A DNA stretch of 64,000 nucleotides from Escherichia coli O127:H6 str. E2348/69 (GTDB lineage: Bacteria; Pseudomonadota; Gammaproteobacteria; Enterobacterales; Enterobacteriaceae): NCBI RefSeq assembly GCF_000026545.1, contig NC_011601.1. One strand, written 5' to 3'. The translations under genes and the position numbers were made by a program. Below the pieces are notes generated by a model. That model searched no databases. It saw only the letters and a list, made by a program, of their open reading frames with translations, and was not told the DNA's origin. Of the stretch, positions 24,548 to 59,096 are shown in pieces (position 1 is the stretch's first letter; every line of letters starts with the position of its first letter).

Positions 24548-25750
24548 ATGGCAATTAAATTAGAAATTAAAAATCTTTATAAAATATTTGGTGAGCATCC
24601 ACAGCGAGCTTTCAAATATATCGAACAAGGACTTTCAAAAGAACAAATTCTGGAAAAAACTGGGCTATCGCTTGGCGTAAAAGACGCCAGTCTGGCCATT
24701 GAAGAAGGCGAGATATTTGTCATCATGGGATTATCCGGTTCGGGTAAATCCACAATGGTACGCCTTCTCAATCGCCTGATTGAACCCACCCGCGGGCAAG
24801 TGCTGATTGATGGTGTGGATATTGCCAAAATATCCGACGCCGAACTCCGTGAGGTGCGCAGAAAAAAGATTGCGATGGTCTTCCAGTCCTTTGCCTTAAT
24901 GCCGCATATGACCGTGCTGGACAATACTGCGTTCGGTATGGAACTGGCCGGAATTAATGCCGAAGAACGCCGGGAAAAAGCCCTTGATGCACTGCGTCAG
25001 GTCGGGCTGGAAAATTATGCCCACAGCTACCCGGATGAACTCTCTGGCGGGATGCGTCAACGTGTGGGATTAGCCCGCGCGTTAGCGATTAATCCGGATA
25101 TATTATTAATGGACGAAGCCTTCTCGGCACTCGATCCATTAATTCGCACCGAGATGCAGGATGAGCTGGTAAAATTACAGGCGAAACATCAGCGCACCAT
25201 TGTCTTTATTTCCCACGATCTCGATGAAGCTATGCGTATTGGCGACCGAATTGCCATTATGCAAAATGGTGAAGTGGTGCAGGTTGGTACACCGGATGAA
25301 ATTCTTAATAATCCGGCGAATGATTATGTTCGTACCTTCTTCCGTGGCGTCGATATTAGCCAGGTGTTCAGTGCGAAAGATATTGCCCGTCGTACACCGA
25401 ACGGCTTAATTCGTAAAACCCCCGGCTTCGGCCCGCGTTCGGCACTGAAATTATTGCAGGATGAAGATCGTGAATATGGCTACGTCATCGAACGCGGTAA
25501 TAAGTATGTCGGCGCTGTGTCTATCGATTCGCTTAAAGCCGCATTAACGCAGCAGCAAGGTCTTGATGCGGCGCTGATTGATGCGCCGTTAGCGGTCGAT
25601 GCACAAACGCCTCTTAGCGAGTTGCTCTCTCATGTCGGACAGGCACCCTGTGCGGTGCCCGTGGTCGACGAGGACCAACAGTATGTCGGCATCATTTCGA
25701 AAGGAATGCTGCTGCGCGCTTTAGATCGTGAGGGGGTAAATAATGGCTGA
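24548..25750 (+). CDS. proV: Glycine betaine/proline ABC transporter ATPase (with CBS domains)
   Basis: Walker [13 protein letters not shown] signature LSGGMRQR; 400 aa. Confidence 0.96.
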
Positions 25751-26807
25751 TCAAAATAATCCGTGGGATACCACGCCAGCGGCGGACAGTGCTGCACAAT
25801 CCGCAGACGCCTGGGGTACACCGGCTGCTGCACCGACTGACGGCGGTGGTGCTGACTGGCTGACCAGTACGCCTGCGCCAAACGTCGAGCATTTTAATAT
25901 TCTCGATCCGTTCCATAAAACACTGATCCCGCTCGACAGTTGGGTCACTGAAGGGATCGACTGGGTCGTTACCCATTTCCGTCCCGTCTTCCAGGGCGTG
26001 CGCGTTCCGGTTGATTATATCCTCAACGGTTTCCAGCAATTGCTGCTGGGTATGCCCGCGCCAGTGGCGATTATCGTTTTCGCTCTCATCGCCTGGCAGA
26101 TTTCCGGGGTCGGAATGGGCGTGGCGACGCTGGTTTCGCTGATTGCCATCGGCGCAATCGGTGCCTGGTCACAGGCAATGGTTACCCTGGCGCTGGTGTT
26201 AACAGCCCTGCTGTTCTGTATCGTCATAGGTTTGCCGTTGGGGATCTGGCTGGCGAGAAGTCCGCGAGCGGCGAAAATTATTCGTCCACTGCTTGATGCC
26301 ATGCAGACCACGCCCGCGTTTGTTTATCTGGTGCCAATCGTCATGCTGTTTGGTATCGGCAACGTGCCGGGCGTGGTGGTGACGATCATCTTTGCGCTGC
26401 CGCCGATTATCCGTCTGACGATTCTGGGAATTAACCAGGTTCCGGCGGATCTGATTGAAGCCTCGCGCTCATTCGGTGCCAGCCCGCGCCAGATGCTGTT
26501 CAAAGTTCAGTTACCGCTGGCGATGCCAACCATTATGGCGGGCGTTAACCAGACTCTGATGCTGGCCCTTTCTATGGTGGTCATCGCCTCGATGATTGCC
26601 GTCGGCGGGCTGGGGCAGATGGTACTTCGCGGTATCGGTCGTCTGGATATGGGGCTTGCCACCGTTGGCGGCGTCGGGATTGTGATCCTCGCCATTATCC
26701 TCGACCGCCTGACGCAGGCCGTTGGGCGCGACTCACGCAGTCGTGGCAACCGTCGCTGGTACACCACTGGCCCTGTCGGTCTGCTGACCCGCCCATTCAT
26801 TAAGTAA
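25743..26807 (+). CDS. proW: Glycine betaine/proline ABC transporter permease
   Basis: 354-aa polytopic permease overlapping proV stop. Confidence 0.95.
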
Positions 26808-26864
26808 CTCTGCACTTGCCCGGTGACGCCGGGCATTATCACCCTGCCAAAGAAAGGAATAACA

Positions 26865-27857
26865 ATGCGACATAGCGTACTTTTTGCGACAGCGTTTGCC
26901 ACGCTTATCTCTACACAAACTTTTGCTGCCGACCTGCCGGGCAAAGGCATTACTGTTAATCCGGTTCAGAGCACCATCACCGAAGAAACTTTCCAGACAC
27001 TGCTGGTCAGCCGCGCGCTGGAGAAATTAGGTTATACCGTCAATAAACCCAGCGAAGTGGATTACAACGTTGGCTACACCTCACTTGCTTCCGGCGATGC
27101 AACCTTCACCGCAGTGAACTGGACGCCACTGCATGACAACATGTACGAAGCTGCCGGTGGCGATAAGAAATTTTATCGTGAAGGAGTATTTGTTAACGGC
27201 GCGGCACAGGGTTACCTGATCGATAAGAAAACTGCCGACCAGTATAAAATTACCAACATCGCGCAACTTAAAGATCCGAAGATCGCCAAACTGTTCGATA
27301 CCAACGGCGACGGTAAAGCGGATTTAACCGGCTGTAACCCAGGCTGGGGCTGCGAAGGTGCGATCAACCACCAGCTTGCCGCGTATGGACTGACCAATAC
27401 CGTGACGCATAATCAGGGGAACTACGCAGCGATGATGGCTGACACCATCAGTCGTTACAAAGAGGGTAAGCCGGTGTTTTACTACACCTGGACGCCGTAC
27501 TGGGTGAGTAACGAACTGAAACCGGGGAAAGATGTGGTCTGGTTGCAGGTGCCGTTCTCCGCACTGCCGGGCGATAAAAATGCCGATACCAAACTGCCGA
27601 ATGGCGCGAATTACGGCTTCCCGGTCAGTACCATGCATATCGTTGCCAACAAAGCCTGGGCCGAGAAAAACCCGGCAGCAGCGAAACTGTTTGCCATTAT
27701 GCAGTTACCAGTGGCAGATATTAACGCCCAGAACGCCATTATGCATGACGGCAAAGCCTCAGAAGGCGATATTCAGAGCCACGTTGATGGCTGGATCAAA
27801 GCCCACCAGCAGCAGTTCGATGGCTGGGTGAATGAGGCGCTGGCAGCGCAGAAGTAA
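26865..27857 (+). CDS. proX: Glycine betaine/proline periplasmic binding protein
   Basis: Start [21 protein letters not shown] (signal peptide); the ORF-track start at 26823 is an upstream extension. Confidence 0.94.
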
Positions 27858-28305
27858 ATATTGATAACCGCGCAGATAATGCTCATGTGAGTAAAACAAT
27901 TGCAGCGATGGTTTTAATCCGGCTGAAAATCGATGAGACGTTTTCTGAAGGCCGGGGCGACGCGCAGGGATGCGCGGCGAGGGCGCGTCTTACAGGGATG
28001 TTACCTCGCGCCCGTACCCGATAGCCGTAAGAAATAAGTCGAATGTACCGCGTAGCGGCGATTTTGTGCCAAAAGCCTGGGTCGCCAGGGTGGTGGCGAC
28101 TGAGCCACCCTGGCACGTTCACCAGCAAAATAGTGACAAGCTATAGTCTGGAAGTGAACGTAACATTTGCCTTAGTGGCATATTTCACCTTCAAATACCC
28201 TCTCCCCATTACCCGCACATTTCAACAATCTATCTTTCATCCCATATTCATCAACATCCGCTATTATTGATTTCCAGCTTAATCATCACCTGATGAACAA
28301 AAATA

Positions 28306-29490
28306 ATGACTAAACCTAATCATGAGATTAGCCCGGCGCTGATCGTGCTGATGTCTATCGCCACCGGTCTGGCGGTAGCCAGTAACTATTACGCCCAGCC
28401 ATTGCTCGACACCATCGCGCGTAACTTTTCCCTTTCCGCCAGTTCGGCAGGCTTTATTGTTACCGCCGCGCAGTTGGGCTATGCCGCAGGTCTGCTGTTT
28501 CTTGTTCCCCTCGGTGATATGTTTGAACGCCGCCGCCTGATTGTCTCGATGACCTTACTGGCAGCAGGCGGCATGTTAATCACTGCCAGCAGTCAGTCGC
28601 TGGCGATGATGCTCCTCGGTACGGCATTAACCGGTTTATTCTCAGTCGTGGCACAAATTCTGGTTCCGCTGGCAGTGACGCTGGCTTCACCGGACAAACG
28701 CGGCAAAGTGGTCGGCACCATTATGAGCGGGCTGCTGTTGGGGATCTTGCTGGCACGGACCGTTGCCGGATTGCTGGCGAGTCTCGGTGGCTGGCGAACT
28801 GTCTTTTGGGTCGCTTCGGTATTAATGGCACTGATGGCGCTGGCGTTATGGCGTGGTCTGCCACAAATGAAATCAGAAACCCACCTCAACTACCCACAGT
28901 TGCTAGGTTCTGTTTTCAGCATGTTTATCAGCGATAAAATCCTGCGCACCCGCGCGTTGCTGGGCTGCCTGACCTTTGCCAACTTCAGCATTCTCTGGAC
29001 CTCAATGGCCTTTTTGCTTGCCGCTCCACCTTTTAACTACAGCGATGGTGTAATTGGTCTGTTTGGGCTTGCGGGAGCTGCCGGAGCGTTGGGCGCTCGT
29101 CCGGCGGGCGGTTTTGCCGATAAGGGCAAATCGCACCACACCACAACTTTCGGTCTGCTGCTGCTGTTACTTTCATGGCTGGCAATCTGGTTTGGTCACA
29201 CTTCCGTACTGGCGCTGATTATCGGCATCCTGGTGCTGGACCTCACCGTGCAGGGCGTGCATATCACTAACCAGACGGTAATTTATCGAATACACCCTGA
29301 TGCGCGTAATCGCCTGACCGCAGGTTACATGACCAGCTACTTTATTGGCGGTGCCGCTGGTTCGCTAATTTCAGCCTCAGCCTGGCAACATGGCAGTTGG
29401 GCTGGCGTGTGTCTGGCTGGCGCGACGATTGCCCTGGTTAACTTACTGGTCTGGTGGCGAGGTTTTCATCGTCAGGAAGCCGCAAATTAA
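28306..29490 (+). CDS. ygaY: MFS transporter (YgaY), intact 394-aa ORF
   Basis: Uninterrupted 12-TM-like MFS protein at the position where, as I recall, K-12 carries a disrupted ygaY. Confidence 0.8.
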   Translation: MTKPNHEISPALIVLMSIATGLAVASNYYAQPLLDTIARNFSLSASSAGFIVTAAQLGYAAGLLFLVPLGDMFERRRLIVSMTLLAAGGMLITASSQSLAMMLLGTALTGLFSVVAQILVPLAVTLASPDKRGKVVGTIMSGLLLGILLARTVAGLLASLGGWRTVFWVASVLMALMALALWRGLPQMKSETHLNYPQLLGSVFSMFISDKILRTRALLGCLTFANFSILWTSMAFLLAAPPFNYSDGVIGLFGLAGAAGALGARPAGGFADKGKSHHTTTFGLLLLLLSWLAIWFGHTSVLALIIGILVLDLTVQGVHITNQTVIYRIHPDARNRLTAGYMTSYFIGGAAGSLISASAWQHGSWAGVCLAGATIALVNLLVWWRGFHRQEAAN

Positions 29491-29613
29491 GCAATCAGCA
29501 ACCGTTTTCGTGGCTTTACACTTATAAGGGTGTTAAGAAGCCCATCAGTCTGATAAGGTTAAGATATTCATTCAGTCTATTTATAATATTAACAATCGTT
29601 AAGCGTACACTCT

Positions 29614-30351
29614 ATGGAAAGCCCTACTCCACAGCCTGCTCCTGGTTCGGCGACCTTCATGGAAGGATGCAAAGACAGTTTACCGATTGTTATTAGTTAT
29701 ATTCCGGTGGCCTTTGCGTTCGGTCTGAATGCGACCCGTCTGGGATTCTCTCCTCTCGAAAGCGTTTTTTTCTCCTGCATCATTTATGCAGGCGCGAGCC
29801 AGTTCGTCATTACCGCGATGCTGGCAGCCGGGAGTAGTTTGTGGGTTGCTGCACTGACCGTCATGGCAATGGATGTTCGCCATGTTTTGTATGGCCCGTC
29901 ACTGCGTAGCCGTATTATTCAGCGTCTGCAAAAATCGAAAACCGCCCTGTGGGCGTTTGGCCTGACGGATGAGGTTTTTGCCGCCGCAACCGCAAAACTG
30001 GTACGCAATAATCGCCGCTGGAGCGAAAACTGGATGATCGGCATTGCCTTCAGTTCATGGTCATCGTGGGTATTTGGTACGGTAATAGGGGCATTCTCCG
30101 GCAGCGGCTTGCTGCAAGGTTATCCCGCCGTTGAAGCAGCATTAGGTTTTATGCTTCCGGCACTCTTTATGAGTTTCCTGCTCGCCTCTTTCCAGCGCAA
30201 ACAATCTCTTTGCGTTACCGCAGCGTTAGTTGGTGCCCTTGCAGGCGTAACGCTATTTTCTATTCCCGTCGCCATTCTGGCAGGCATTGTCTGTGGCTGC
30301 CTCACTGCGTTAATCCAGGCATTCTGGCAAGGAGCGCCCGATGAGCTATGA
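29614..30351 (+). CDS. ygaZ: AzlC-family branched-chain amino acid (L-valine) exporter subunit
   Basis: 245-aa membrane protein, conserved ygaZ-ygaH pair. Confidence 0.9.
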
Positions 30352-30676
30352 GGTTCTGCTGCTTGGGTTACTGGTTGGCGCGGCGAATTATTGCTTCCGC
30401 TATCTGCCGCTGCGCCTGCGTGTGGGTAATGCCCGCCCAACCAAACGTGGCGCGGTAGGTATTTTGCTCGACACCATTGGCATCGCCTCGATATGCGCTC
30501 TGCTGGTTGTCTCTACCGCACCAGAAGTGATGCACGATACACGCCGTTTCGTGCCCACACTGGTCGGCTTCGCGGTACTGGGTGCCAGTTTCTATAAAAC
30601 ACGCAGCATTATCATCCCAACACTGCTTAGTGCGCTGGCCTATGGGCTCGCCTGGAAAGTGATGGCGATTATATAA
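30341..30676 (+). CDS. ygaH: AzlD-family exporter subunit
   Basis: 111-aa membrane protein overlapping the ygaZ stop. Confidence 0.9.
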
Positions 30677-30766
30677 CCCACAAGAATCATTTTTCTAAAA
30701 CAATACATTTACTTTATTTGTCACTGTCGTTACTATATCGACTGAAATTAATGAGGTCATACCCAA

Positions 30767-31297
30767 ATGGATAGTTCGTTTACGCCCATTGAACAAATGC
30801 TAAAATTTCGCGCCAGCCGCCACGAAGATTTTCCTTATCAGGAGATCCTTCTGACCCGTCTTTGCATGCATATGCAAAGCAAGCTGCTGGAAAACCGCAA
30901 TAAAATGCTGAAGGCTCAGGGGATTAACGAGACGTTGTTTATGGCGTTGATTACGCTGGAGTCTCAGGAAAACCACAGTATTCAGCCTTCTGAATTGAGT
31001 TGTGCTCTTGGATCATCCCGTACCAACGCGACGCGTATTGCCGATGAACTGGAAAAACGCGGTTGGATCGAACGTCGTGAAAGCGATAACGATCGCCGCT
31101 GCCTGCATCTGCAATTAACGGAAAAAGGTCACGAGTTTTTGCGCGAGGTTTTACCGCCGCAGCATAACTGCCTGCATCAACTCTGGTCCGCGCTCAGCAC
31201 AACAGAAAAAGACCAGCTCGAGCAAATCACCCGCAAATTGCTCTCCCGTCTCGACCAGATGGAACAGGACGGTGTGGTTCTCGAAGCGATGAGCTAA
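30767..31297 (+). CDS. mprA: MarR-family repressor MprA (EmrR)
   Basis: 176-aa translation matches recalled MprA. Confidence 0.95.
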
Positions 31298-31423
31298 CGC
31301 GTCATCTCGCTCAAAAATCCAGATTTATAAAAGAAAAAATAACCGGCCAGCATCGTAACATGCTGGCCTTTTTGGCAAGCAGGTCGGCTCAGCCGATGAG
31401 TTAAGAAGATCGTGGAGAACAAT

Positions 31424-32596
31424 ATGAGCGCAAATGCGGAGACTCAAACCCCGCAGCAACCGGTAAAGAAGAGCGGCAAACGTAAGCGTCTGCTCCTCCT
31501 TCTCACCTTGCTCTTTATAATTATTGCCGTAGCGATAGGGATTTATTGGTTTTTGGTACTGCGTCATTTCGAAGAAACCGATGACGCATACGTGGCAGGG
31601 AATCAGATTCAAATTATGTCTCAGGTGTCTGGCAGCGTGACGAAAGTCTGGGCCGATAACACCGATTTTGTAAAAGAAGGCGACGTGCTGGTCACTCTCG
31701 ACCCGACAGATGCTCGCCAGGCATTTGAAAAAGCCAAAACTGCACTGGCTTCCAGCGTTCGCCAAACCCACCAGCTGATGATTAACAGCAAACAGTTGCA
31801 GGCGAATATTGAGGTGCAAAAAATCGCCCTCGCGAAAGCACAAAGCGACTACAACCGCCGTGTGCCGCTGGGCAATGCCAACCTGATTGGTCGCGAAGAG
31901 CTGCAACACGCCCGCGACGCCGTCACCAGTGCCCAGGCGCAACTGGACGTCGCTATTCAACAATACAATGCCAATCAGGCGATGATTCTGGGGACGAAAC
32001 TGGAAGATCAGCCTGCCGTGCAACAGGCTGCCACCGAAGTACGTAACGCCTGGCTGGCGCTGGAGCGTACCCGTATTGTCAGTCCGATGACCGGTTATGT
32101 CTCCCGCCGCGCGGTACAGCCTGGGGCGCAAATTAGCCCAACGACGCCGCTGATGGCGGTCGTTCCAGCCACCAATATGTGGGTGGATGCCAACTTTAAA
32201 GAGACGCAGATTGCCAATATGCGTATCGGTCAGCCGGTCACCATCACCACCGATATTTACGGCGATGATGTGAAATACACCGGTAAAGTGGTTGGTCTGG
32301 ATATGGGCACAGGTAGCGCGTTCTCACTGCTTCCGGCGCAAAACGCCACCGGTAACTGGATCAAAGTCGTTCAGCGTCTGCCTGTGCGTATTGAACTGGA
32401 CCAGAAACAGCTGGAGCAATACCCGCTGCGTATCGGTTTATCCACGCTGGTGAGTGTCAATACCACTAACCGTGACGGTCAGGTACTGGCAAATAAAGTA
32501 CGTTCCACACCGGTCGCGGTAAGCACCGCGCGTGAAATCAGCCTGGCACCTGTCAATAAACTGATCGACGATATCGTAAAAGCTAACGCTGGCTAA
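31424..32596 (+). CDS. emrA: Multidrug efflux membrane fusion protein EmrA
   Basis: Start MSANAETQTPQQPVKKSGKRKR...; HlyD-family. Confidence 0.95.
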   Translation: MSANAETQTPQQPVKKSGKRKRLLLLLTLLFIIIAVAIGIYWFLVLRHFEETDDAYVAGNQIQIMSQVSGSVTKVWADNTDFVKEGDVLVTLDPTDARQAFEKAKTALASSVRQTHQLMINSKQLQANIEVQKIALAKAQSDYNRRVPLGNANLIGREELQHARDAVTSAQAQLDVAIQQYNANQAMILGTKLEDQPAVQQAATEVRNAWLALERTRIVSPMTGYVSRRAVQPGAQISPTTPLMAVVPATNMWVDANFKETQIANMRIGQPVTITTDIYGDDVKYTGKVVGLDMGTGSAFSLLPAQNATGNWIKVVQRLPVRIELDQKQLEQYPLRIGLSTLVSVNTTNRDGQVLANKVRSTPVAVSTAREISLAPVNKLIDDIVKANAG

Positions 32597-32612
32597 TCCA
32601 GAGGTGCGTGTG

Positions 32613-34151
32613 ATGCAACAGCAAAAACCGCTGGAAGGCGCACAACTGGTCATTATGACGATTGCGCTGTCACTGGCGACATTCATGCAGGTGCTGGACT
32701 CCACCATTGCTAACGTGGCGATCCCCACTATCGCCGGGAATCTGGGCTCATCACTCAGTCAGGGAACGTGGGTGATCACTTCTTTCGGGGTGGCGAATGC
32801 CATCTCGATCCCGCTTACCGGCTGGCTGGCAAAGCGCGTCGGGGAAGTGAAATTGTTCCTCTGGTCAACCATCGCCTTTGCTATTGCGTCGTGGGCGTGT
32901 GGTGTCTCCAGCAGCCTGAATATGCTGATCTTCTTCCGCGTGATTCAGGGGATTGTCGCCGGGCCGCTGATCCCGCTTTCGCAAAGTCTATTGCTGAATA
33001 ACTACCCGCCAGCCAAACGCTCGATCGCGCTGGCGTTGTGGTCGATGACGGTGATTGTTGCGCCAATTTGCGGCCCGATCCTCGGCGGTTATATCAGTGA
33101 TAATTACCACTGGGGCTGGATATTCTTCATCAACGTGCCGATTGGCGTGGCGGTGGTGTTGATGACACTGCAAACTCTGCGCGGACGTGAAACCCGCACC
33201 GAACGGCGGCGGATTGATGCCGTGGGGCTGGCACTGCTGGTTATTGGTATCGGCAGCCTGCAGATTATGCTCGACCGCGGTAAAGAGCTGGACTGGTTCT
33301 CATCACAGGAAATTATCATCCTCACCGTGGTGGCGGTGGTGGCTATCTGCTTCCTGATTGTCTGGGAGCTGACCGACGATAACCCGATAGTCGATCTGTC
33401 GTTGTTTAAGTCGCGCAACTTCACCATCGGCTGCTTGTGTATCAGCCTCGCGTATATGCTCTACTTCGGCGCGATTGTTCTGCTGCCGCAGTTGTTGCAG
33501 GAGGTCTACGGTTACACGGCGACGTGGGCAGGGCTGGCCTCTGCGCCGGTAGGGATTATTCCGGTGATCCTGTCGCCGATTATCGGCCGCTTTGCGCATA
33601 AACTGGATATGCGCCGACTGGTAACCTTCAGCTTTATTATGTATGCCGTCTGCTTCTACTGGCGTGCCTATACCTTTGAACCGGGTATGGATTTTGGCGC
33701 GTCGGCCTGGCCACAGTTTATCCAGGGTTTTGCGGTGGCCTGCTTCTTTATGCCGCTGACCACCATTACGCTGTCCGGTTTGCCACCGGAACGACTGGCG
33801 GCGGCATCAAGCCTCTCCAACTTTACGCGAACGCTGGCGGGGTCTATCGGCACGTCGATAACCACGACCATGTGGACCAACCGCGAGTCACTGCACCATG
33901 CACAGTTGACTGAGTCGGTAAACCCGTTCAACCCGAATGCTCAGGCGATGTACAGTCAACTGGAAGGGCTTGGTATGACGCAACAGCAGGCATCAGGCTG
34001 GATTGCCCAGCAGATAACCAATCAGGGGCTGATTATTTCCGCCAATGAGATCTTCTGGATGTCAGCCGGGATATTCCTCGTCCTGCTGGGGCTGGTGTGG
34101 TTTGCTAAACCGCCATTTGGCGCAGGTGGCGGCGGGGGTGGTGCGCACTAA
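32613..34151 (+). CDS. emrB: Multidrug efflux MFS transporter EmrB
   Basis: Start MQQQKPLEGAQLVIMTIALSLATFMQVLD; 14-TM MFS. Confidence 0.95.
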   Translation: MQQQKPLEGAQLVIMTIALSLATFMQVLDSTIANVAIPTIAGNLGSSLSQGTWVITSFGVANAISIPLTGWLAKRVGEVKLFLWSTIAFAIASWACGVSSSLNMLIFFRVIQGIVAGPLIPLSQSLLLNNYPPAKRSIALALWSMTVIVAPICGPILGGYISDNYHWGWIFFINVPIGVAVVLMTLQTLRGRETRTERRRIDAVGLALLVIGIGSLQIMLDRGKELDWFSSQEIIILTVVAVVAICFLIVWELTDDNPIVDLSLFKSRNFTIGCLCISLAYMLYFGAIVLLPQLLQEVYGYTATWAGLASAPVGIIPVILSPIIGRFAHKLDMRRLVTFSFIMYAVCFYWRAYTFEPGMDFGASAWPQFIQGFAVACFFMPLTTITLSGLPPERLAAASSLSNFTRTLAGSIGTSITTTMWTNRESLHHAQLTESVNPFNPNAQAMYSQLEGLGMTQQQASGWIAQQITNQGLIISANEIFWMSAGIFLVLLGLVWFAKPPFGAGGGGGGAH

Positions 34152-34159
34152 GGTTGCCA

Positions 34160-34186
34160 AAGGGAGCTGCGGCTCCCTTTTTATTT
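34160..34186 (+). terminator. Intrinsic terminator of emrAB
   Basis: gggagctgcggctccc hairpin followed by tttttattt. Confidence 0.65.
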
Positions 34187-34408
34187 GCTCATTCTGCAAA
34201 CGGTTGTTTTATACACTCATTCGGTGTATCTTTTCGCCGCCCCAAACTCTTCCATTCACCATTAGCCGGTTCTGAGCATTCGCTCAGGTTGTTAATTCTC
34301 TTTTTCCTTCGCCCTTGCTTTCGCGGGTGATACTCACATTTTTATTTTAACCCCATAACTCGCACCCTCGCGGGCGTACATTTATTACACACAAAATAAT
34401 GGATTATT

Positions 34409-35116
34409 ATGAATACCCAACGAAAATACGGGAGAACCTGGCATTACCCCTTCTCTCCAGGCACCACCAGCGATGACCGCATTAACACCGATTACTGGCA
34501 GGATTTAAAGGCCATCACGCAATTGGTGCACACAGAAAAACTCGATGGCGAAAATAACTGCCTTAACCGCTACGGCGTGTTTGCCCGCTCCCATGCCACG
34601 CCTACGCAGTCGGCATGGACCTATAAAATTCGCCAACGCTGGCAACTGCTGAAAAACGATCTCGGCGACCTGGAGTTGTTTGGTGAAAATCTCTACGCCG
34701 TTCATTCCATTGAATACCGCGCGCTGGAACAGGACTTTTACCTGTTTGCCGTTCGCTGCCAGGATATGTGGCTGAGCTGGGAAGAGGTGCAGTTTTACGC
34801 CGCTCTGTTTGATTTCCCCTGCGTTCCCGAAATCTCCGGCCCGCAGCCGGGGAATGATGAAAAAAGCTGGCAACGTGATTTTCTGGCGCTGGCCAATGCG
34901 CGCGGCACATTCGATCCCTGGGATACGCAAACCTGGCAACCCTGTACGCTGGAAGGCATTGTCAGCCGAAATCATGATGCGTTTTCTGTCGCTGACTTTT
35001 CGCATAACGTCTTCAAGTATGTGCGCAAAAATCATGTCAAAACCACTGTGCACTGGAAACGCCACTGGCAACGGGCGCGGATGGCCCATGAGTTCGTTTA
35101 TGGAGAACAGTCATGA
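34409..35116 (+). CDS. RNA-ligase-like nucleotidyltransferase (Rnl2/DraRnl-like), 235 aa
   Basis: Covalent nucleotidyltransferase motif I KxDG(x)N ([10 protein letters not shown]), candidate motif III (LELFGENLY), motif IV (LEGIVSR) and motif V lysines (FKYVRKNH) in the canonical order; 4-bp ATGA overlap with the next gene. Confidence 0.6.
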
Positions 35117-36225
35117 TTTGGCAACTTACCGACGATAAACGCTGGTCGGCGCTACGTCAGCGTTTTAGCTGGGTTGAGGAGATGCATCACACGCCACAAG
35201 ACCCTGAGCATCATGGTGAAGGCGACGTCGGCGTACATACCGAAATGGTGCTTAACGCCCTCATTACTCTGCCAGAATTCCAGCAACTCCCCGCTCAACA
35301 GCAGGAAGTTTTATGGGCGGCGGTGTTATTGCATGATGTTGAAAAGCGCAGCACTACCGTGCAGGAAAACGGACGTATTCAGTCTCCTGGTCATGCTCGT
35401 CGGGGCGAACTGACGGCCCGACAAATTTTATGGCGCGATATCCCAACGCCGTTCGTGCTGCGCGAGCAAATTGTTGCACTGGTGCGTCTGCATGGGTTAC
35501 CGCTATGGTTACTGGAACGCCCGGAACCGGAGCGTTTGTTGCTCACGGCTGCAATGCGCATCGACACGCGTCTGCTCGCTTTGCTTGCTCGTGCCGATCT
35601 GCTTGGTCGCCAAAGCCCGGATCAGCAATCAATGCTGGAACGCATCGATCTGTTCGAGCTGTTTTGCCATGAGCAACAATGCTGGGGAAAAATGCGCCCG
35701 TTCGTTTCTGATTCCGCACGCTGGCATTACCTGACCCATGAGCAAAGTTCTCCTGATTTTGTTCCCTGGGGGGCTGAACCTTTTGAGGTTATTTTGCTGT
35801 GTGGCTTACCGGGTATGGGCAAAGATCGCTATATCAGTGAACAGTGCCAGGGAATTGACGTTATCAGCCTTGATGATATGCGGCGGCGAATCAATGCCAG
35901 CCCGGATGACAAAACCGCTACCGGGCGTATTGTGCAACAGGCAAAAGAAGAGGCGCGCGTTTTTTTACGCCAGAAAAAGCCGTTCATCTGGAATGCAACG
36001 AACATTACCCGCCAGCTGCGTAGCCAGCTCATCAGTCTGTTTACGGCTTACGGCGCACGAGTAAAAATCGTTTATCTGGAAGTGCCATGGGCGCAATGGA
36101 AGCAGCAAAATGCCAGACGCGAGTATGCAGTTCCTGAAGCGGTCGTGATGCGGATGGCCTCAAGGCTGGAAGTTCCTCAACCTGATGAAGCACATAGCGT
36201 GGAGTATCGGGTGATTGAAAGGTAA
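35113..36225 (+). CDS. HD-domain phosphohydrolase fused to a P-loop (polynucleotide-kinase-like) domain, 370 aa
   Basis: N-terminal HD motifs ([14 protein letters not shown] ... AVLLHDVEK) resembling the HD domain of CCA-adding enzymes; C-terminal Walker A-like GLPGMGKD and Walker B-like VISLDD. Confidence 0.6.
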
Positions 36226-36247
36226 ATAAATATCCTCCGGCATAGCC

Positions 36248-37797
36248 CTGTCTCTTATACACAAATCCCCACCCGGGGATTTGTGATGTCTGTCAGTCTG
36301 CTTTAGGGGGACTCTTTCCATCCGGTAGTTTCCTTCCTCCCCGGCAGCGATTTTTTGAACTTTTTCCTCACCTGTTGATCTTCTCTTATATTTCATTTTC
36401 TTCGGGTCTGTTATGGTACTTTCTGATTGTTATTCATGGGCTAACGAGCAGTTTGGACATGCCCGTCTCGGTGATCCGCGTCGTACACGACGCCTTGTGT
36501 CACTGGCCTCTTCTCTCGCTCAGCATGCAGGTCTTTCTATTGTGAAATCATCCCAGTCCACTGCTCAGGTTGAAGGTGCGTACCGCCTGATACGTAACCC
36601 GTCTGTGTCCCCGCAAGCCATTGCCGAAGCCGGATTTACCGCCACTGTAAGGGCATGTGAGGCTCATCCGCTGCTCCTCGCGCTGGAAGACACCACCACC
36701 ATTAACTTCAGTCACAGTACGGCATCTGATGACCTGGGGAATACCACCACTAACCCGAAGACGCGCGGGCTGCTGGCTCACTCTGTCCTGATGTACGCCC
36801 CCGACAGCGCCCTGCCAGTCGGTCTTATCGAACAGCAGCGCTGGAGTCGTGCCACGGACACCTACGGTGTTAAGCACCAGCGAAAAGAACGTCCCTATGA
36901 AGAAAAAGAAAGTTACCGCTGGCAGCAGGCTTCGGAGCGCATGGCCGAACGGCTGGGGGAGATACAGAAACGGGTAATCACTGTCTGTGACCGGGAAGCG
37001 GATATCTGGCATTACCTGCATTATAAAGTCAGCCACGGGCAGCGCTTCGTGGTGCGTGCAGCACAGAATCGCCGGCTGGAAGAAGCACCCGGCAAGCTCT
37101 TCGAACTGCCGGAAGTCCTGGCAACCGCGGGAAGCCACACGCTGAATGTGATGCAAAAAGGCGGGCGGGCAGCCCGCCAGGCCCGGATGTTCATCAGTTA
37201 CAGCGAAGTCAGCATAAAAAATCCCGACAACAGCGGCCAGGCGCTCCCGCTCACGTATGTCTGTTGCCGGGAGCAGGCAGAGGACGGCGCCTGCTGGCAT
37301 CTGCTGACGTCAGAAAAAGTGGCGAGTGCCGCCGATGCGCGACGTATCGTCAGCCATTACGAGCGACGCTGGCTGATAGAGGAATACCACAAGGCGTGGA
37401 AAAGTGGTGGTACATGTGTGGAATCGCTGCGAATGCAGACCCGGGATAACCTCGAGCGCATGGTGGTTATCAAGGCGTTTATCGCGGTGCGGGTGCTGGG
37501 CCTGCGGCAGGGCGGTATCAGTGAAGAAACACAAAATGACAGCTGTGAGAAAATACTGACGCCGACAGAGTGGAAACTGCTGTGGGTTAAGCTGGAAGGA
37601 AAACCGCTTCCGTCACAGATGCCGACACTGAAATGGGCCTGTCTGAAACTGGCGAAACTGGGGCGATGGCATGACAGCAAACGCACCGGTCGCCCCGGTT
37701 GGGTAGTCATGTGGGATGGCTGGTTCAGACTTCAGGATATGGTTGAGGGTTACCTGGTGATGAAGTCTCTTGATCAGGAGATCTGATCAAGAGACAG
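36248..37797 (+). mobile_element. IS4-family, IS50(Tn5)-like insertion sequence, copy 1 (1550 bp)
   Basis: Termini CTGTCTCTTATACACAAATCC and, on the other end, CTGTCTCTTGATCAGATCT (IS50 outside/inside-end-like); flanked by the 10-bp direct repeat CGGCATAGCC; internal 457-aa transposase. Confidence 0.85.
36413..37786 (+). CDS. IS50-like DDE transposase (457 aa)
   Basis: Clear homology to Tn5 Tnp (..GDPRRT.RLV....EGAYRFIRNP.., ..YERRWLIEEYHKAWKSG.., ..RLGGFxDSKRTG-like C-terminus) but not identical to Tn5. Confidence 0.85.
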   Translation: MVLSDCYSWANEQFGHARLGDPRRTRRLVSLASSLAQHAGLSIVKSSQSTAQVEGAYRLIRNPSVSPQAIAEAGFTATVRACEAHPLLLALEDTTTINFSHSTASDDLGNTTTNPKTRGLLAHSVLMYAPDSALPVGLIEQQRWSRATDTYGVKHQRKERPYEEKESYRWQQASERMAERLGEIQKRVITVCDREADIWHYLHYKVSHGQRFVVRAAQNRRLEEAPGKLFELPEVLATAGSHTLNVMQKGGRAARQARMFISYSEVSIKNPDNSGQALPLTYVCCREQAEDGACWHLLTSEKVASAADARRIVSHYERRWLIEEYHKAWKSGGTCVESLRMQTRDNLERMVVIKAFIAVRVLGLRQGGISEETQNDSCEKILTPTEWKLLWVKLEGKPLPSQMPTLKWACLKLAKLGRWHDSKRTGRPGWVVMWDGWFRLQDMVEGYLVMKSLDQEI

Positions 37798-37815
37798 CGG
37801 CATAGCCGGAGGTTT

Positions 37816-38496
37816 TTCAAATGCGCCTATAAGGCTCTCTTACCAGCCGCGCCCTAACAGGCGCACACGATCTGACATTTGCATCCAACTTCGTTACTTA
37901 CGGCCCGTAAACGGGCTGCCCGGATAGGGAATCGATAACTGCTCTCCCATTTTATCCTCTTCAAGCTGGTGCTTTATGTAATCCTGTATCTTCGCCGTGT
38001 TCTTACCCACCGTATCGACGTAATACCCTCTGCACCAGAACTCCCTGTTCCTGTACTTGAATTTCAAATCACCAAACTGCTCGTAAAGCATCAGACTGCT
38101 TTTCCCTTTCAGATATCCCATAAAGCCGGATACGCTCATTTTGGGCGGGATCTCCACAAGCATATGGATATGATCTGCACAGCATTCAGCTTCCAGAATC
38201 CGTACACTTTTCCACTCACACAGCTTTCTCAAAATACAGCCTATTGCTCTACGCTTCTCTCTGTAGAACACCTGTCTTCGGTATTTTGGCGCAAATACTA
38301 TGTGATATTTACAGTTCCATCGGGTGTGCGCTAAGCTCTTTTCGTTCCCCATTGGGACCCCCTTTTGATTTCTTGTTTGACACTTGCAGTTGCCAGACCG
38401 CAAGGTGTTTTAACAAATCAAAAGGGGTTTTAATAACTGGCTCAAAGCTGAAAGCTTTCCGGAACCCCCAGCCTAGCTGGGGGTTTTCTGTGCACA
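37816..38496 (-). mobile_element. IS200-like element (IS200/IS605 family); boundaries approximate
   Basis: Contains the IS200-type tnpA gene plus a terminal hairpin cccccagcctagctggggg (38466..38484); about 680 bp. Confidence 0.6.
37894..38403 (-). CDS. tnpA: IS200-family HUH (Y1) transposase TnpA
   Basis: 169-aa protein with the HuH motif (ADHIHMLVEIPPKMSVS) and the catalytic Tyr region (RGYYVDTVGKN) typical of IS200 TnpA. Confidence 0.85.
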   Translation of the reverse strand: MRSGNCKCQTRNQKGVPMGNEKSLAHTRWNCKYHIVFAPKYRRQVFYREKRRAIGCILRKLCEWKSVRILEAECCADHIHMLVEIPPKMSVSGFMGYLKGKSSLMLYEQFGDLKFKYRNREFWCRGYYVDTVGKNTAKIQDYIKHQLEEDKMGEQLSIPYPGSPFTGRK

Positions 38497-38532
38497 AAAA
38501 ACCGGGCGGTGGTGTCACCTGCCCGGCTTCTT
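38497..38532 (-). terminator. luxS intrinsic terminator
   Basis: Minus-strand hairpin gccgggcaggtgacaccaccgcccgg followed by ttttttg immediately 3' of the luxS stop. Confidence 0.65.
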
Positions 38533-38544
38533 TTGTTCCACTGA

Positions 38545-39060
38545 CTAAATGTGCAGTTCCTGCAACTTCTCTTTCGGCAGCGCCAGTTCTTCGTTGCTGT
38601 TGATGCGCACGTCACGTTCCAGAATGCTACGCGCAATATCCTGCGCTTCCTGCAACGAGTGCATCTGGTAAGTGCCACACTGGTAGACGTTCAGTTCCGG
38701 GATCTGATTCTGATCCTGCACTTTCAGCACGTCTTCCATTGCCGCTTTCCAGGCATCAGCGACACGCTGCTCATCTGGCGTACCAATCAGACTCATATAA
38801 AAACCGGTGCGGCAGCCCATTGGCGAGATATCGATAATCTCTACGCCATTACCGTTAAGATGGTTACGCATAAAACCAGCAAACAGGTGCTCCAGGGTAT
38901 GGATCCCTCTTTCTGGCATCACTTCTTTGTTCGGCACGCAGAAGCGCAGATCGAACACGGTGATTGCGTCGCCATGCGGGGTGTTCATTGTTTTCGCCAC
39001 CCGAACTGCAGGCGCTTCCATCCGGGTATGATCGACTGTGAAGCTATCTAACAACGGCAT
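38545..39060 (-). CDS. luxS: S-ribosylhomocysteine lyase (AI-2 synthase)
   Basis: 171-aa translation matches recalled LuxS (HTLEHLFAG metal site). Confidence 0.97.
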
Positions 39061-39128
39061 TTAGCCACCTCCGGTAATTTTTTTAAAAATTTTCTGAACT
39101 CTTTCTTCCCAGGCGAGTCTGAGTATAT

Positions 39129-39201
39129 GAAAGACGCGCATTTGTTATCATCATCCCTGAATTCAGAGATGAAATTTTGGCCACTCACGAGTGGCCTTTT
39201 T
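39129..39201 (+). ncRNA. micA: MicA (SraD) small RNA
   Basis: gaaagacgcgcatttgttatcatcatccctgaattcagagatgaaattttggccactcacgagtggccttttt matches my recollection of the MicA sequence, including the terminator hairpin; sits in the luxS-gshA intergenic region. Confidence 0.85.
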
Positions 39202-39209
39202 CTTTTCTG

Positions 39210-40793
<1,584 letters not shown>

Positions 40794-48272: not shown

Positions 48273-48416
48273 CACAACCTCTGTCAGTCATAAATTTATG
48301 CCGGACAAGATAGCACTTTCGTCAGGAAGATGGTGTTGGCGTTGCAATTTTACGAGGAGGATTCAGAAAAAAGCTGATTAGCCAGAGGGAAGCTCACGCC
48401 CCCCTCTGGCAAATAG

Positions 48417-49502
48417 TTACTGCACGCGCGCCAGCGCCACGGCTTGTCCTAACTGCCAGACCGCCATTGCGTAATGGGTGCTGTGGTTATAACGGGTAAT
48501 GGTGTAGAAGTTCGGCAGACCGTACCAGTACTGGTAACCGGTACCGACATCCAGACGCAGCAGGCTGGCTTGTTGATGGTTGCCCAGCGGCTGCTGTGGC
48601 GTTAAACCTGCCGCGGCAAGCTGCGAAATGCTGTACCTGGTTTTGAAGCCATTTGGCAAGCCTGGCGCCTGACCGTTTGCCATTACCGCGACCTGATCGC
48701 CTTTCACCCAGCCGTGCGCTTTGAAATAATTCGCCACGCTACCGATCGCATCAACCGGATCCCACAGGTTGATATGCCCGTCGCCGCTGAAATCTACCGC
48801 ATATTGTTTGTAAGACGACGGCATAAACTGTCCGTAGCCCATCGCCCCGGCAAAGGAACCTTTCAGATTGAGCGGATCGTCCTGCTCGTCGCGCGCCATC
48901 AGCAGGAAGGTTTCCAGCTCGCCAGAAAAATACTCCGCGCGGCGTGGGTAGTTAAATGACAGCGTTGCCAGCGCATCGAGGATGCGAGTTTTCCCCATCA
49001 CGCGCCCCCAGCGGGTTTCAACGCCGATAATCCCGACGATAATTTCCGGCGGTACACCATACACCTGCCACGCGCGATTCAACGCATCTTCATACTGATT
49101 CCAGAAAACCACACCGTTCTGCACGTTGTCCGGCGTAATAAATTTTTTGCGATAACGCAGCCATGCGCCGTTCGGACCTGATGGCGGTTTCACCGATGTG
49201 GTTGGTGCCTGGTTATCCATCAGCCGCAGTACCGAATCCAGACGTTTCGCCTGGGAGAGAATTTCCTGCAACTGCTGACGATCGAAACCGTGTTTGTTCA
49301 CCATTTTGTCGATGAACTGCTGGGCATTCGGGTTATTGGCGAAGTCACCGCCCATCTGCATCACATTGTGCTGCGGCTCAAGCAGGAAGCCGCCAGACGG
49401 CGTTCCGGTGGTCGTTTCAGTCTCAGTAGGTTTTGGCTTGCTGCTACAGGCGGCAAGCAACACAAAAAGGGGAAGCAATGTTACATAACGACGCTTGAAC
49501 AT
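48417..49502 (-). CDS. mltB: Membrane-bound lytic murein transglycosylase B
   Basis: Start MFKRRYVTLLPLFVLLAACSS (lipoprotein signal); the ORF-track start at 49562 is an upstream extension. Confidence 0.95.
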   Translation of the reverse strand: MFKRRYVTLLPLFVLLAACSSKPKPTETETTTGTPSGGFLLEPQHNVMQMGGDFANNPNAQQFIDKMVNKHGFDRQQLQEILSQAKRLDSVLRLMDNQAPTTSVKPPSGPNGAWLRYRKKFITPDNVQNGVVFWNQYEDALNRAWQVYGVPPEIIVGIIGVETRWGRVMGKTRILDALATLSFNYPRRAEYFSGELETFLLMARDEQDDPLNLKGSFAGAMGYGQFMPSSYKQYAVDFSGDGHINLWDPVDAIGSVANYFKAHGWVKGDQVAVMANGQAPGLPNGFKTRYSISQLAAAGLTPQQPLGNHQQASLLRLDVGTGYQYWYGLPNFYTITRYNHSTHYAMAVWQLGQAVALARVQ

Positions 49503-49755
49503 GAGGGGTCCATTTAACAGATTCAACCAGGGGCAAGTATGGTAAAGCATCCCCTGCCGCACAAGGAAGCGGTTGTCTGTTTTCAGTGCTCTGTTTCTCT
49601 CTAGTATCTTCTTTCAGTTCATATTTTTTCTTAAAGAATGTTGTAACTAAATTTACATCAGTTGTTTCACCAGCCATGGCATTGGATAATGAGCGTTCAA
49701 TCTGGCTACCAATCCCTGGCTGGAATAAATAAATGGACCTTAACCGGAGAGAGCA

Positions 49756-50721
49756 ATGAGTGAAGCACTACTGAACGCGGGACGTCAGACGTTAATGCTG
49801 GAGTTGCAGGAAGCAAGCCATTTACCGGAACGTCTGGGCGATGATTTCGTTCGCGCCGCCAATATCATCCTGCACTGCGAAGGCAAAGTGGTGGTTTCGG
49901 GAATTGGCAAATCGGGCCACATTGGTAAGAAAATCGCCGCAACGCTTGCCAGCACCGGCACACCGGCTTTTTTTGTCCATCCGGCAGAAGCACTGCACGG
50001 CGATCTGGGGATGATTGAAAGCCGCGATGTGATGCTGTTTATCTCTTATTCCGGTGGCGCGAAGGAACTGGATCTCATTATTCCGCGTCTGGAAGACAAA
50101 TCTATCGCTCTGCTGGCAATGACCGGAAAACCGACGTCACCGCTGGGCCTGGCGGCGAAAGCGGTGCTGGATATCTCCGTAGAACGCGAAGCCTGCCCGA
50201 TGCACCTTGCGCCGACCTCCAGCACCGTGAATACCCTGATGATGGGCGACGCGTTGGCGATGGCAGTCATGCAGGCGCGCGGATTTAACGAAGAAGATTT
50301 TGCCCGCTCCCACCCTGCTGGAGCACTGGGCGCTCGCTTGCTGAATAAAGTGCATCATCTGATGCGCCGTGATGACGCTATCCCGCAGGTAGCGTTAACC
50401 GCCAGCGTGATGGATGCGATGCTGGAACTCAGCCGCACCGGTCTGGGGCTGGTGGCGGTATGTGACGCTCAGCAACAGGTACAAGGCGTCTTTACCGACG
50501 GTGATTTACGTCGCTGGCTGGTTGGCGGCGGCGCACTCACCACGCCAGTCAATGAAGCGATGACGGTCGGCGGCACCACGTTGCAATCGCAAAGCCGTGC
50601 CATCGACGCCAAAGAAATCCTGATGAAACGCAAAATCACCGCCGCACCGGTAGTGGATGAAAACGGCAAACTCACCGGCGCAATTAACCTGCAGGATTTC
50701 TATCAGGCCGGGATTATTTAA
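49756..50721 (+). CDS. gutQ: D-arabinose 5-phosphate isomerase GutQ (SIS + CBS domains)
   Basis: 321-aa translation matches recalled GutQ. Confidence 0.93.
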
Positions 50722-52232
50722 TCCTTCAGCCCCAGACGTTTCGCCAGCCGATGCAGGTTGGCGACGTCGGTTTCCAGCATCCGCGCACAGGCGGCCCAGT
50801 TGTGATGATTTTGCGCCAGTGCCTGACGAATGGTTTCACGCTGGAACGCTTCTGTCGCTTCACGCAGGTTTTGCTTAACAACGGGCACCGCCGCCACTTC
50901 TGGCGGCGGCAACGTCACCTCAGGAAAAGCAAAATGTTGCGCCTCAAGAATCACTTCATCGCCGCTGCGGGTGGCTCTCGCCAGCACTACCGCCCGATGA
51001 ATAGCATGTTCCAGTTCACGAACGTTCCCCGGAAAATTGTAGTGTTGCAGTAAATTTCGCGCTCCGGCACTTAATACCACGCGGGAGAGCCCCAGCCGCA
51101 AACGACACTGCTCGCAGAAATACCCCGCCAACAGAATGACATCATCGCCCCGCTCACGCAGCGGCGGCACTGAAAGTGGAAACACGCTCAGGCGGTGGAA
51201 CAAGTCAGCGCGAAATCGCCCTGCCAGTACCTCTTCGCGTAAGTCACGATTAGTCGCCGCCAGCACGCGCACATCGACCCGCAAACTGCGGTCATCGCCA
51301 ACGCGTTGAATATCGCCATACTGCAACACCCTCAGCAGCTTGGCCTGCAATGCCAACGACAACTCGCCGATCTCATCGAGAAACAGCGTGCCGTTATCCG
51401 CCATTTCAAACTTCCCGCTGCGGTTACTGATAGCGCCAGTAAACGCTCCTTTCACATGCCCGAACAACTCACTTTCCGCCACACTTTCCGGCAGTGCGGC
51501 ACAGTTGAGATAGACCAGCGGATTCACCGCCCGTGGCGAGGCTTCATGAATCGCTTTCGCCACCAGCTCCTTACCGGTTCCCGTCTCACCGCTAATTAAA
51601 ACGTTGAGATCGGATGCCGCCACAATCTCAATCTCTTTTTTCAATTGCGTCATGCCAGGGGACAAACCAATCATCTGCGTCTGTTTCACCGCTTCAAACG
51701 GCGCGGCATCGCCTGGCAGCATATTCTGGCTTTCCAGTTGTTCAATCAGCAATGCATTGCTTAACGCTCCCGCCGCCAGTGCGGCAATCAGCCGTAGCTC
51801 TTCGTCGCTGAAAACATCGAACTGATCGGGCTGCATCCCGTCGAGCGTCAAGGCACCGATCAGGTTTTGCCCGGCAAACAACGGCAAACCAACGCAGGCG
51901 TGAACCTTCAGACTCTCCTGCCCTGGAATCAAACCGTCATAAGGATCGGGCAATTCGCTGTCTGCGGGAAAGCGCACCACATCACCCGCGCGGGCAATCG
52001 CTTCCAGCCGTGGATGCCCTTCCAGCGCAAAGCGCCTACCGAGTACATCCTTCGCCAGCCCGTCGATGGCAAGCGGAATAAACTGCCGCGAGTCGTAACG
52101 TAGCAACGCAGACGCATCGCACTCCAGCACCTGACGCAGCGTGGTGATCAGGCGCTGAAAACGATCCTGATGACCAATCCCACGCTGCAATTCGATGGCG
52201 ATATTCGCCAGCACATCAACGGAAAAACTCAT
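50718..52232 (-). CDS. norR: Sigma54-dependent NO-responsive activator NorR
   Basis: Start [19 protein letters not shown] + AAA+ (GETGTGKE) + HTH. Confidence 0.95.
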
Positions 52233-55163: not shown

Positions 55164-55694
55164 GTGCAGTTTATGAAACATTCATTTGAAGTAAAACTTG
55201 CCGCTGTAAATCATTACCTGGCTGGTCATGCAGGCATCATTTCTACGGCAAAACTCTTTCAACTTTCTCACACCAGCCTCTCACACTGGATTAATCTTTT
55301 TCTTCTTCACGGTCCTCGGGCACTGGATTGCAGACACAAGCGTAGCTATTCTCCTGAAGATAAACTTTGCGTGGTTCTTTATGCTCTCGGACATTCTGAG
55401 TCTCTACCCCGGGTAGCTGCCCGGTTTAACATTCCCAGCCACAACACGGTTAAAAACTGGATAAAAGGCTACCGCAAATCTGGTAATGAGGCCTTTATCA
55501 GGCGCAGGAAGGAGAAAAGCATGACCCGTTCTGATGATACCCATGAAAACGAGGCAAACATGACGCCGGAAGAGATGAAGAATGAGCTGCGTTATCTTCG
55601 CGCAGAAAATGCATATCTGAAAGCCATGCAGGAGCATCTTCTGGAAAAAAAGCGCCAGGAGCTGGAGAAAAAACGAAAGTCATCCGGAGCCTGA
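55164..55694 (+). CDS. IS3-family (IS150-like) OrfA
   Basis: 176-aa HTH/leucine-zipper protein; ends at an A_AAA_AAG slippery motif (55651..55659). Confidence 0.8.
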   Translation: MQFMKHSFEVKLAAVNHYLAGHAGIISTAKLFQLSHTSLSHWINLFLLHGPRALDCRHKRSYSPEDKLCVVLYALGHSESLPRVAARFNIPSHNTVKNWIKGYRKSGNEAFIRRRKEKSMTRSDDTHENEANMTPEEMKNELRYLRAENAYLKAMQEHLLEKKRQELEKKRKSSGA

Positions 55695-56126
55695 GGTACG
55701 GACACTGCCAGTCTGACCTGTTAAAGGCCGCAGGGCTGGCCAGAAGCACGCTGTACTACCAGCTGTCACTGCAGAAGGCTAAGGACAAGTATGCTGATGT
55801 GAAACAGCTCATAGCCTCCATCTTCCATGAACACCGGGGATGTTATGGGTACCGGCGGATCCATTGTGAGCTTCAGAAAAGAGGTCTTAAGTTCAGTGGC
55901 AAAACGGTGCGAAAACTGATGCAACAGCTCGGCCTGAAGTCTCCTGTGCGCCTGAAGAAATACCGGTCTTACCGGGGAAATATGGGACTCGCTGCAGAAA
56001 ATATCCTTCAGCGGCAGTTCAAAGCGGAAGCTCCCTGTGAGAAATGGGTGACAGATATCACCGAATTCAGGGCTGGCGGACAAAAACTGTACCTGTCCCC
56101 GATACTTGATTTGTTTAACGGGGAAA
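55650..56126 (+). pseudogene. Element A orfB, N-terminal fragment (through ..WVTDITEF..LYLSPILDLFNGE)
   Basis: IS3 DDE transposase N-terminal region truncated at the insertion of element B. Confidence 0.65.

Positions 56127-59096
<2,970 letters not shown>

Follow-up and report, generated by a model that had tools for sequence, protein, structure and literature searches.

The glucitol/sorbitol (srl/gut) operon of Escherichia coli is best known from K-12, where it lies between mltB and gutQ. The order in MG1655 is mltB-srlA-srlE-srlB-srlD-gutM-srlR-gutQ, as the initial annotation of the present DNA had correctly given it, and the B2 type strain ATCC 11775 has the same order. In both strains gutQ is the last operon gene. 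In MG1655, 4236 bp separate the starts of mltB and gutQ, not the approximately 5.7 kb that the initial annotation gave. The sorbitol defect of O157:H7 is ascribed to point or frameshift lesions and not to operon loss, and O157:H7 genomes keep the full-length srl segment at the site (100% coverage). E. fergusonii has no srl genes there; its inability to ferment sorbitol is used to select for it (PMC8826826, PMC5454151). E. albertii is sorbitol-variable, and a review gives its biogroup 1 as positive (PMC9145129).

The window analyzed here is a 64,000-nt stretch of DNA whose source strain is the enteropathogenic E. coli (EPEC) O127:H6 strain E2348/69; its positions 49000–50300 are 100% identical to three E2348/69 assemblies. 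The predicted sorbitol phenotype of E2348/69 is that of O157:H7, namely non-sorbitol-fermenting, but unlike O157:H7 it does not keep the srl segment. In its place stands a replacement allele that is old in Escherichia and that some E. coli very probably acquired from E. fergusonii through homologous recombination over a short tract.

Anatomy of the mltB–gutQ junction

The features of the junction are collected in Table 1. The gap between mltB and gutQ amounts to 252 nt (49504–49755) and contains no RefSeq feature. The initial annotation had stated that srlAEBD-gutM-srlR is missing, that mltB is directly beside gutQ, and that gutQ is intact. The RefSeq annotation, the ORFs, and the alignment to ATCC 11775 confirm the first two statements, and the 321-codon ORF of gutQ bears out the third. 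Hence, the genes that constitute a functional operon (srlA, srlE, srlB, srlD, gutM, and srlR) are not found at the mltB–gutQ site of E2348/69. The parts shared with K-12 and ATCC 11775 are mltB with 74 nt upstream of it, gutQ with its ribosome-binding site (RBS), the last 23 nt of srlR, and the matching norR-norVW region downstream. The parts present in K-12 and ATCC 11775 but lacking in E2348/69 are the genes for the phosphotransferase system (PTS; srlA, srlE, and srlB), the dehydrogenase (srlD), and both regulators; gutQ is consequently no longer the last gene of an operon. The srl genes have not moved elsewhere in the genome, an outcome that would have undone the initial claim of absence: the strains carrying this junction have no further srlAEBD-like DNA by blastn, and a scan of an E2348/69-type assembly with the 4148-bp srl segment returned a spurious 47-bp match and nothing more.

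Table 1. Features in and around the mltB–gutQ gap of E2348/69, in window coordinates
Feature	Position	Strand	Remarks and basis
mltB (lytic murein transglycosylase B), intact	48418–49503	-	Start codon at 49503; RefSeq annotation, ORF list
77-codon ORF, "hypothetical protein" in other annotations	49444–49677	-	ORF list
mltB upstream region, conserved, 74 nt	49504–49577		Left boundary of replacement; alignment to ATCC 11775
Four E. fergusonii-type bases beside filler	49554–49556; 49574		CTG (not GCC); T (not A)
Filler, 163 bp, 36% GC	49578–49740		Between homology breakpoints; alignment to ATCC 11775
Candidate sigma-70 promoter for gutQ, in filler	49662–49690	+	Consensus match read from sequence
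Last 23 nt of srlR, overlapping gutQ RBS and start codon	49741–49763	+	Only remnant of the operon; alignment to ATCC 11775
gutQ (arabinose-5-phosphate isomerase), intact, 321 aa	49756–50721	+	ATG at 49756; RefSeq annotation, ORF list

Homology to srl-positive E. coli ends at 49577, which corresponds to 9578 in the ATCC 11775 locus and is located 74 nt upstream of the mltB start. It picks up again at 49741 (13727 in the ATCC 11775 locus), 15 nt before the ATG of gutQ; in the ATCC 11775 locus the end of srlR (13749) overlaps the gutQ start (13742). The mltB upstream block on the left side (GTATGGTAAAGCATCC...CACAAGGAAGCGG) is conserved across genera. Between the two breakpoints, the filler replaces 4148 bp comprising the distal srlA promoter region, srlAEBD, gutM, and all of srlR apart from its end. 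The initial annotation described the junction as free of any insertion sequence (IS) or scar and offered a clean deletion as one of two origins. Its first half holds, since none of the marks of an IS- or transposon-mediated deletion (an IS, terminal inverted repeats, or a target-site duplication) is found at the junction. The second half does not, as the junction contains 163 bp of non-homologous DNA, and an exchange of 4148 bp for an unrelated filler is not a clean deletion.

A fresh clean deletion in E2348/69 might have arisen, for example, by slippage between the RBS/ATG regions of srlA (GGAGAGAACAATGA) and gutQ (GGAGAGAGCAATGA), which are alike at 13 of 14 bases, and the junction without an IS element would agree with such an event. 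It would, however, have kept the E. coli srlA upstream region, and the filler lacks significant similarity to that region and, by nhmmer, to the rest of the locus. Nine further E. coli strains, a gut-metagenome contig, and E. fergusonii moreover have the identical allele. The lack of srl-locus similarity in the filler and its match to E. fergusonii refute a fresh, lineage-specific clean deletion, to which we assign practically no probability.

The search for related sequences covered nucleotide, protein, and RNA collections. Aligned with the E. coli srlA upstream region, the filler gave a local score of 21 versus a shuffle mean of 23. It had no match in an nhmmer search with a hidden Markov model (HMM) of 50 srl-positive loci from many genera, a model that did detect remnants at srl-less loci in other genera. 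In 5426 complete E. coli genomes, blastn matches to the filler occurred at the mltB–gutQ locus only, and no match was found in plasmids (blastn) or, using the minus-strand frame of the filler, in phages (tblastn). The same frame retrieved just small filler-overlapping ORFs of E. coli and E. fergusonii from a set of 5.8 billion proteins, and these ORFs plus the E. albertii copy from a representative set of 1.84 billion. Rfam has no family for the filler, and its RNA fold is unremarkable (z = -1.25). Two apparent resemblances were dismissed: a 24-nt A-rich similarity to the 5' part of norV, which is seen in the E. albertii version only and is marginal (5 of 500 shuffles), is ascribed to chance, and a likeness to the 3' end of gutM that was noticed by eye is unsupported by nhmmer.

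The minus-strand ORF listed in Table 1 extends into the filler, and a filler-internal ORF is found on 20–22 E. fergusonii contigs per variant. Its length varies by species (77, 54, and 51 aa), and the substitutions between E. fergusonii and E. albertii have no codon-position bias (11/8/9, p = 0.78). The ORF is most likely spurious.

Two structural features were noted at the edges of the filler. The first is a 26-nt imperfect inverted repeat, 73% complementary, between 49507–49532 in the mltB leader and 49714–49739 at the right end of the filler. It makes the gutQ leader resemble the mltB leader and is marginal to weak, with 15 of 1000 shuffles scoring as well. The second is at 49556–49587, where the fergusonii-type bases yield a short hairpin and a T-rich run (GCCGCACAAGGAAGCGGT TGTCTGTTTT). 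This hairpin is terminator-like on the plus strand according to a consensus scan, and the T-run is missing from the srl-positive sequence.

Comparison with the E. fergusonii locus

The E. fergusonii locus has the same gutQ-filler-mltB architecture without srl genes, and its alignment with the window continues collinearly across the junction. Both junctions coincide with those of E2348/69, the fillers of E. fergusonii and the E. coli carriers agree at 161 of 163 positions (98.8%), and the four junction-proximal bases are shared as well. E2348/69 thus has an mltB–gutQ replacement allele of the E. fergusonii type at both junctions and in the filler between them. The remainder of mltB, gutQ, and norR of E2348/69 is 94% identical to E. 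fergusonii versus 96.5–99.4% to ATCC 11775. A donor-like tract is therefore embedded in mltB and gutQ sequences that are only 94% identical to the donor species, which is the pattern of introgression. Farther upstream, the spacer between pncC and mltB (48276–48417) is about 320 bp longer in E. fergusonii than in E. coli, and also in E. albertii, E. whittamii, and two further Escherichia species; the extra DNA in E. fergusonii and in the contig of the E. albertii type contains a called 79-aa ORF with no Pfam match.

We then scored individual sites over the approximately 13-kb loci of five carriers, defining fergusonii-type sites as those at which four E. fergusonii loci differ from both of the two srl-positive E. 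coli references used. The four bases beside the filler are fergusonii-type in every E. coli carrier and occur in no srl-positive E. coli, the best srl-positive genomes reaching 99.3% identity over 49000–49577. In strains A25 and DCE7, 19 consecutive informative sites from 49458 to 49574 are fergusonii-type. Their segment 49435–49577 is identical to E. fergusonii at 142 of 142 positions and to ATCC 11775 at 124 of 143, while their distal mltB is 99.4% coli-type. The remaining mltB of the carriers, and gutQ from 49827 on, are coli-type as well. The same two filler differences from E. fergusonii recur in all four sampled carrier groups (five loci aligned). As these two differences and the four junction-proximal bases are common to the carriers, they argue for a single import, and the simplest reading of the local similarity is that one E. 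fergusonii-type tract of a few hundred bases would have entered E. coli. Aside from the junction, fergusonii-shared patches are present in gutQ at 50319–50376 (E2348/69 only) and in norR at 51657–51981 (382634_2f, A25, and DCE7). With coli type defined by two references, these patches may be ordinary E. coli polymorphisms.

The degree of identity bears on whether recent transfer is needed at all. The gutQ dS between E. coli and E. fergusonii is 0.17–0.20, for which neutral DNA is expected to be approximately 84% identical. An ancient polymorphism that predated the split of the two species and was sorted incompletely, without recent transfer, would be in keeping with the age of the allele, whose E. 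albertii copy is about 80% identical as neutral divergence predicts. It should, however, have left about 25 differences in the filler by the gutQ dS, against two observed in 163 positions. Nor does it account for the perfect match of A25 and DCE7 to E. fergusonii over a segment with 19 differences between the species, or for the fact that none of the carriers (12 genomes and one metagenome contig) has a filler diverged by some 15%. We regard incomplete lineage sorting as improbable.

The direction of transfer is one that we infer, and the two filler differences shared by the carriers could mark an unsampled donor. Both points leave a little room for a transfer from E. coli to E. fergusonii, or for a third Escherichia lineage as the donor to both. 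Against a reverse transfer, the junction-proximal bases of E. fergusonii are continuous with its own mltB haplotype, whereas in E. coli the fergusonii bases form an island of 4 to 19 sites within a coli-type gene, and the allele is common in E. fergusonii but rare in E. coli. Reverse or third-party transfer is accordingly given a low probability.

Import from E. fergusonii would combine these observations as follows. The 4148-bp srl segment was substituted by the AT-rich filler, giving an allele that is old in the genus. This allele is standard in E. fergusonii, and the E. albertii type strain retains a version that has diverged neutrally. An E. fergusonii-like donor probably then passed the allele to a minority of E. 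coli lineages by homologous recombination, one crossover falling in mltB and the other at the gutQ start. The imported flanks would afterwards have been trimmed nearly to the junction as the carriers recombined with E. coli DNA. E2348/69 would be among the most eroded carriers, the four fergusonii-type bases being all that is left of its imported flank.

Age and distribution of the allele

For the wider comparison, one genome per species was scanned with GutQ and the genes around the hit were mapped, yielding 80 species-representative loci. The srl operon is at the site in the E. coli representative, E. whittamii, and two further Escherichia species, in most Citrobacter and most Enterobacter, and in Salmonella, Klebsiella, Raoultella, and Kosakonia. 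Since the operon occupies the site across Escherichia and other genera, its presence is the ancestral condition and the filler allele a derived one. Of the 80 loci, about 17 have no srl genes between mltB and an intact gutQ, including those of three Citrobacter species, several Enterobacter, Leclercia, Pseudocitrobacter, and Kluyvera. The losses in other genera resemble that in Escherichia in that mltB adjoins an intact gutQ across a spacer of about 190–290 nt. Their junctions differ, however, and several of them still contain recognizable fragments from the 3' end of gutM, of srlR, or of both genes, whereas the Escherichia filler has no gutM or srlR homology by nhmmer. The losses in other genera are independent deletions. 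At every srl-less locus, the mltB upstream block and gutQ are spared. Leclercia adecarboxylata NCTC13032 represents an intermediate, with the gutM 3' end and a broken srlR retained.

Within Escherichia, the E. albertii type strain NBRC 107761 is also srl-less (4387–4638 of the locus extract); both junctions are shared, and the homologous filler between them measures 162 nt. The fillers of E. albertii and E. fergusonii are about 80% identical. Such a neutral divergence is predicted by the gutQ dS of 0.255, and this agreement indicates that the filler replacement is old in the genus. Unlike the E. coli carriers, NBRC 107761 has coli-type bases at 49554–49556 and 49574. These left-flank bases, together with the diverged filler, show that the E. 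albertii type strain is not the donor of the E. coli allele.

The survey of E. coli comprised 5426 complete genomes. The srl segment is at least 80% present in one place in 5397 of them, and the exact junction with the filler is found in 12. No blastn match to srlAEBD (E ≤ 1e-15) was obtained in 15 genomes, and the 12 with the junction are assumed to be among these. Complete loss of srl in E. coli has mostly come about through the filler allele. A sensitive blastn search detected no diverged second srlAEBD copy in any of the 5426 genomes. By flank identity the carriers fall into four groups. The first consists of the three E2348/69 assemblies, the second of 382634_2f, 377323_2f, EC12, and Z1323PEC0014, the third of RM14723, 2015C-4136CT1, and Z1323HEC0355, and the fourth of A25 and DCE7. 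Judged from local similarity, the carrier lineages all appear to be B2-like. A metagenome scan using the most conserved 22-mer of the filler recovered one gut-metagenome contig that has the junction and is 98% identical to the window. The number of carriers and this contig establish that the junction is real and not an assembly artefact. The names of two carrier strains end in "_2f", hinting at stx2f. An stx2f O63:H6 strain of the STEC/EPEC type has been reported to be non-sorbitol-fermenting (PMC11597368); no connection of that strain to the filler carriers was found.

These distributions decide on the other origin offered by the initial annotation, an ancestral absence, in which the filler would be the original mltB–gutQ intergenic region and srl a gain of the other E. 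coli. E. fergusonii and E. albertii, two early-branching Escherichia, do have the filler with identical junctions, and the 252-nt intergenic length of E2348/69 is close to the 256 nt of the mltB–srlA spacer. Yet mltB-srl-gutQ is the arrangement in Citrobacter, Salmonella, Klebsiella, Enterobacter, Kosakonia, and Raoultella, in all other sampled Escherichia, and in 5397 of 5426 E. coli. The divergence of the srl proteins follows that of the flanking genes, and the identity of the E. coli filler to that of E. fergusonii is far above neutral expectation. Ancestral absence in E. coli is thus contradicted at several levels and very unlikely.

IS elements were observed at other positions of the window. 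The interval between norW and hypF (55174–59063) in E2348/69 contains about 3.9 kb of nested IS fragments (IS1397-like, ISEc21, and other IS3-family), while in K-12 and most B2 strains hypF directly follows norW. The IS1397 fragment beside norW is common to E2348/69, A25, and DCE7, and is not present in 382634_2f or RM14723. Intact copies of the IS4-like ISEc13 transposase are located at 62603–63976 and within 20000–40000, and a 20-kb query containing one ISEc13 copy has 32–36 matching places in the E2348/69 assemblies.

gutQ, sorbitol phenotype, and significance

The retained gene is a full-length orthologue of K-12 GutQ, and the E. fergusonii orthologue has Pfam matches to the SIS and CBS domains. 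The gutQ dN/dS ranges from 0.009 to 0.07 and is 0.055 between E. fergusonii and E. albertii, both of which are srl-less. Hence, gutQ is under strong purifying selection, srl-less species included. Separated from the operon promoter, gutQ probably depends for its transcription on one located in the filler. The candidate consists of TTGTTT (49662–49667), a 17-nt spacer, and GATAAT (49685–49690). It matches the consensus at 8 of 12 positions and scores below the threshold of a consensus scanner. Both hexamers and their spacing are unchanged in E. albertii, in which the filler as a whole is about 80% identical and its left part much more diverged. One may speculate, with considerable doubt, that the filler is a selectively maintained "srl-off, gutQ-on" module that provides gutQ with a promoter of its own, has been kept since the origin of the genus, and is mobile by short-tract recombination. 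If so, it would have spread in EPEC1 and in some lineages associated with dogs and humans for which giving up sorbitol uptake is beneficial.

E2348/69 is predicted to be sorbitol-negative, because srlA, srlE, srlB, and srlD are absent with no copy elsewhere, which would leave the strain without the glucitol PTS and sorbitol-6-phosphate dehydrogenase. The prediction, which the initial annotation had also made, is reasonable in that E. fergusonii, a non-fermenter of sorbitol, shares the allele. In the literature searched, we found neither the sorbitol phenotype of E2348/69 nor an earlier description of the filler allele. Given that E. albertii is sorbitol-variable and its type strain srl-less, Escherichia may possess a second sorbitol route, and a strain without srl at this site may in some cases still test positive.

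For practical purposes, the 163-bp filler offers a simple PCR or sequence marker for srl-less E. coli, strains that sorbitol-MacConkey agar might not distinguish from E. fergusonii or O157. The process is a known one, interspecies homologous recombination carrying a loss allele, and involves no new kind of element; current understanding is not overturned by it. The repeated loss of srl across Enterobacteriaceae, with gutQ always spared, bears on the role of GutQ beside KdsD. For E2348/69 itself, import from E. fergusonii would mean that the loss of a core carbohydrate pathway in a reference EPEC strain came from a ready-made loss allele of another species and not from a mutation of its own, and that a recombination tract of a few hundred bases sufficed to bring it in. 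The locus would then provide a clean example, amenable to dating, of one Escherichia species acquiring a gene-loss allele from another.
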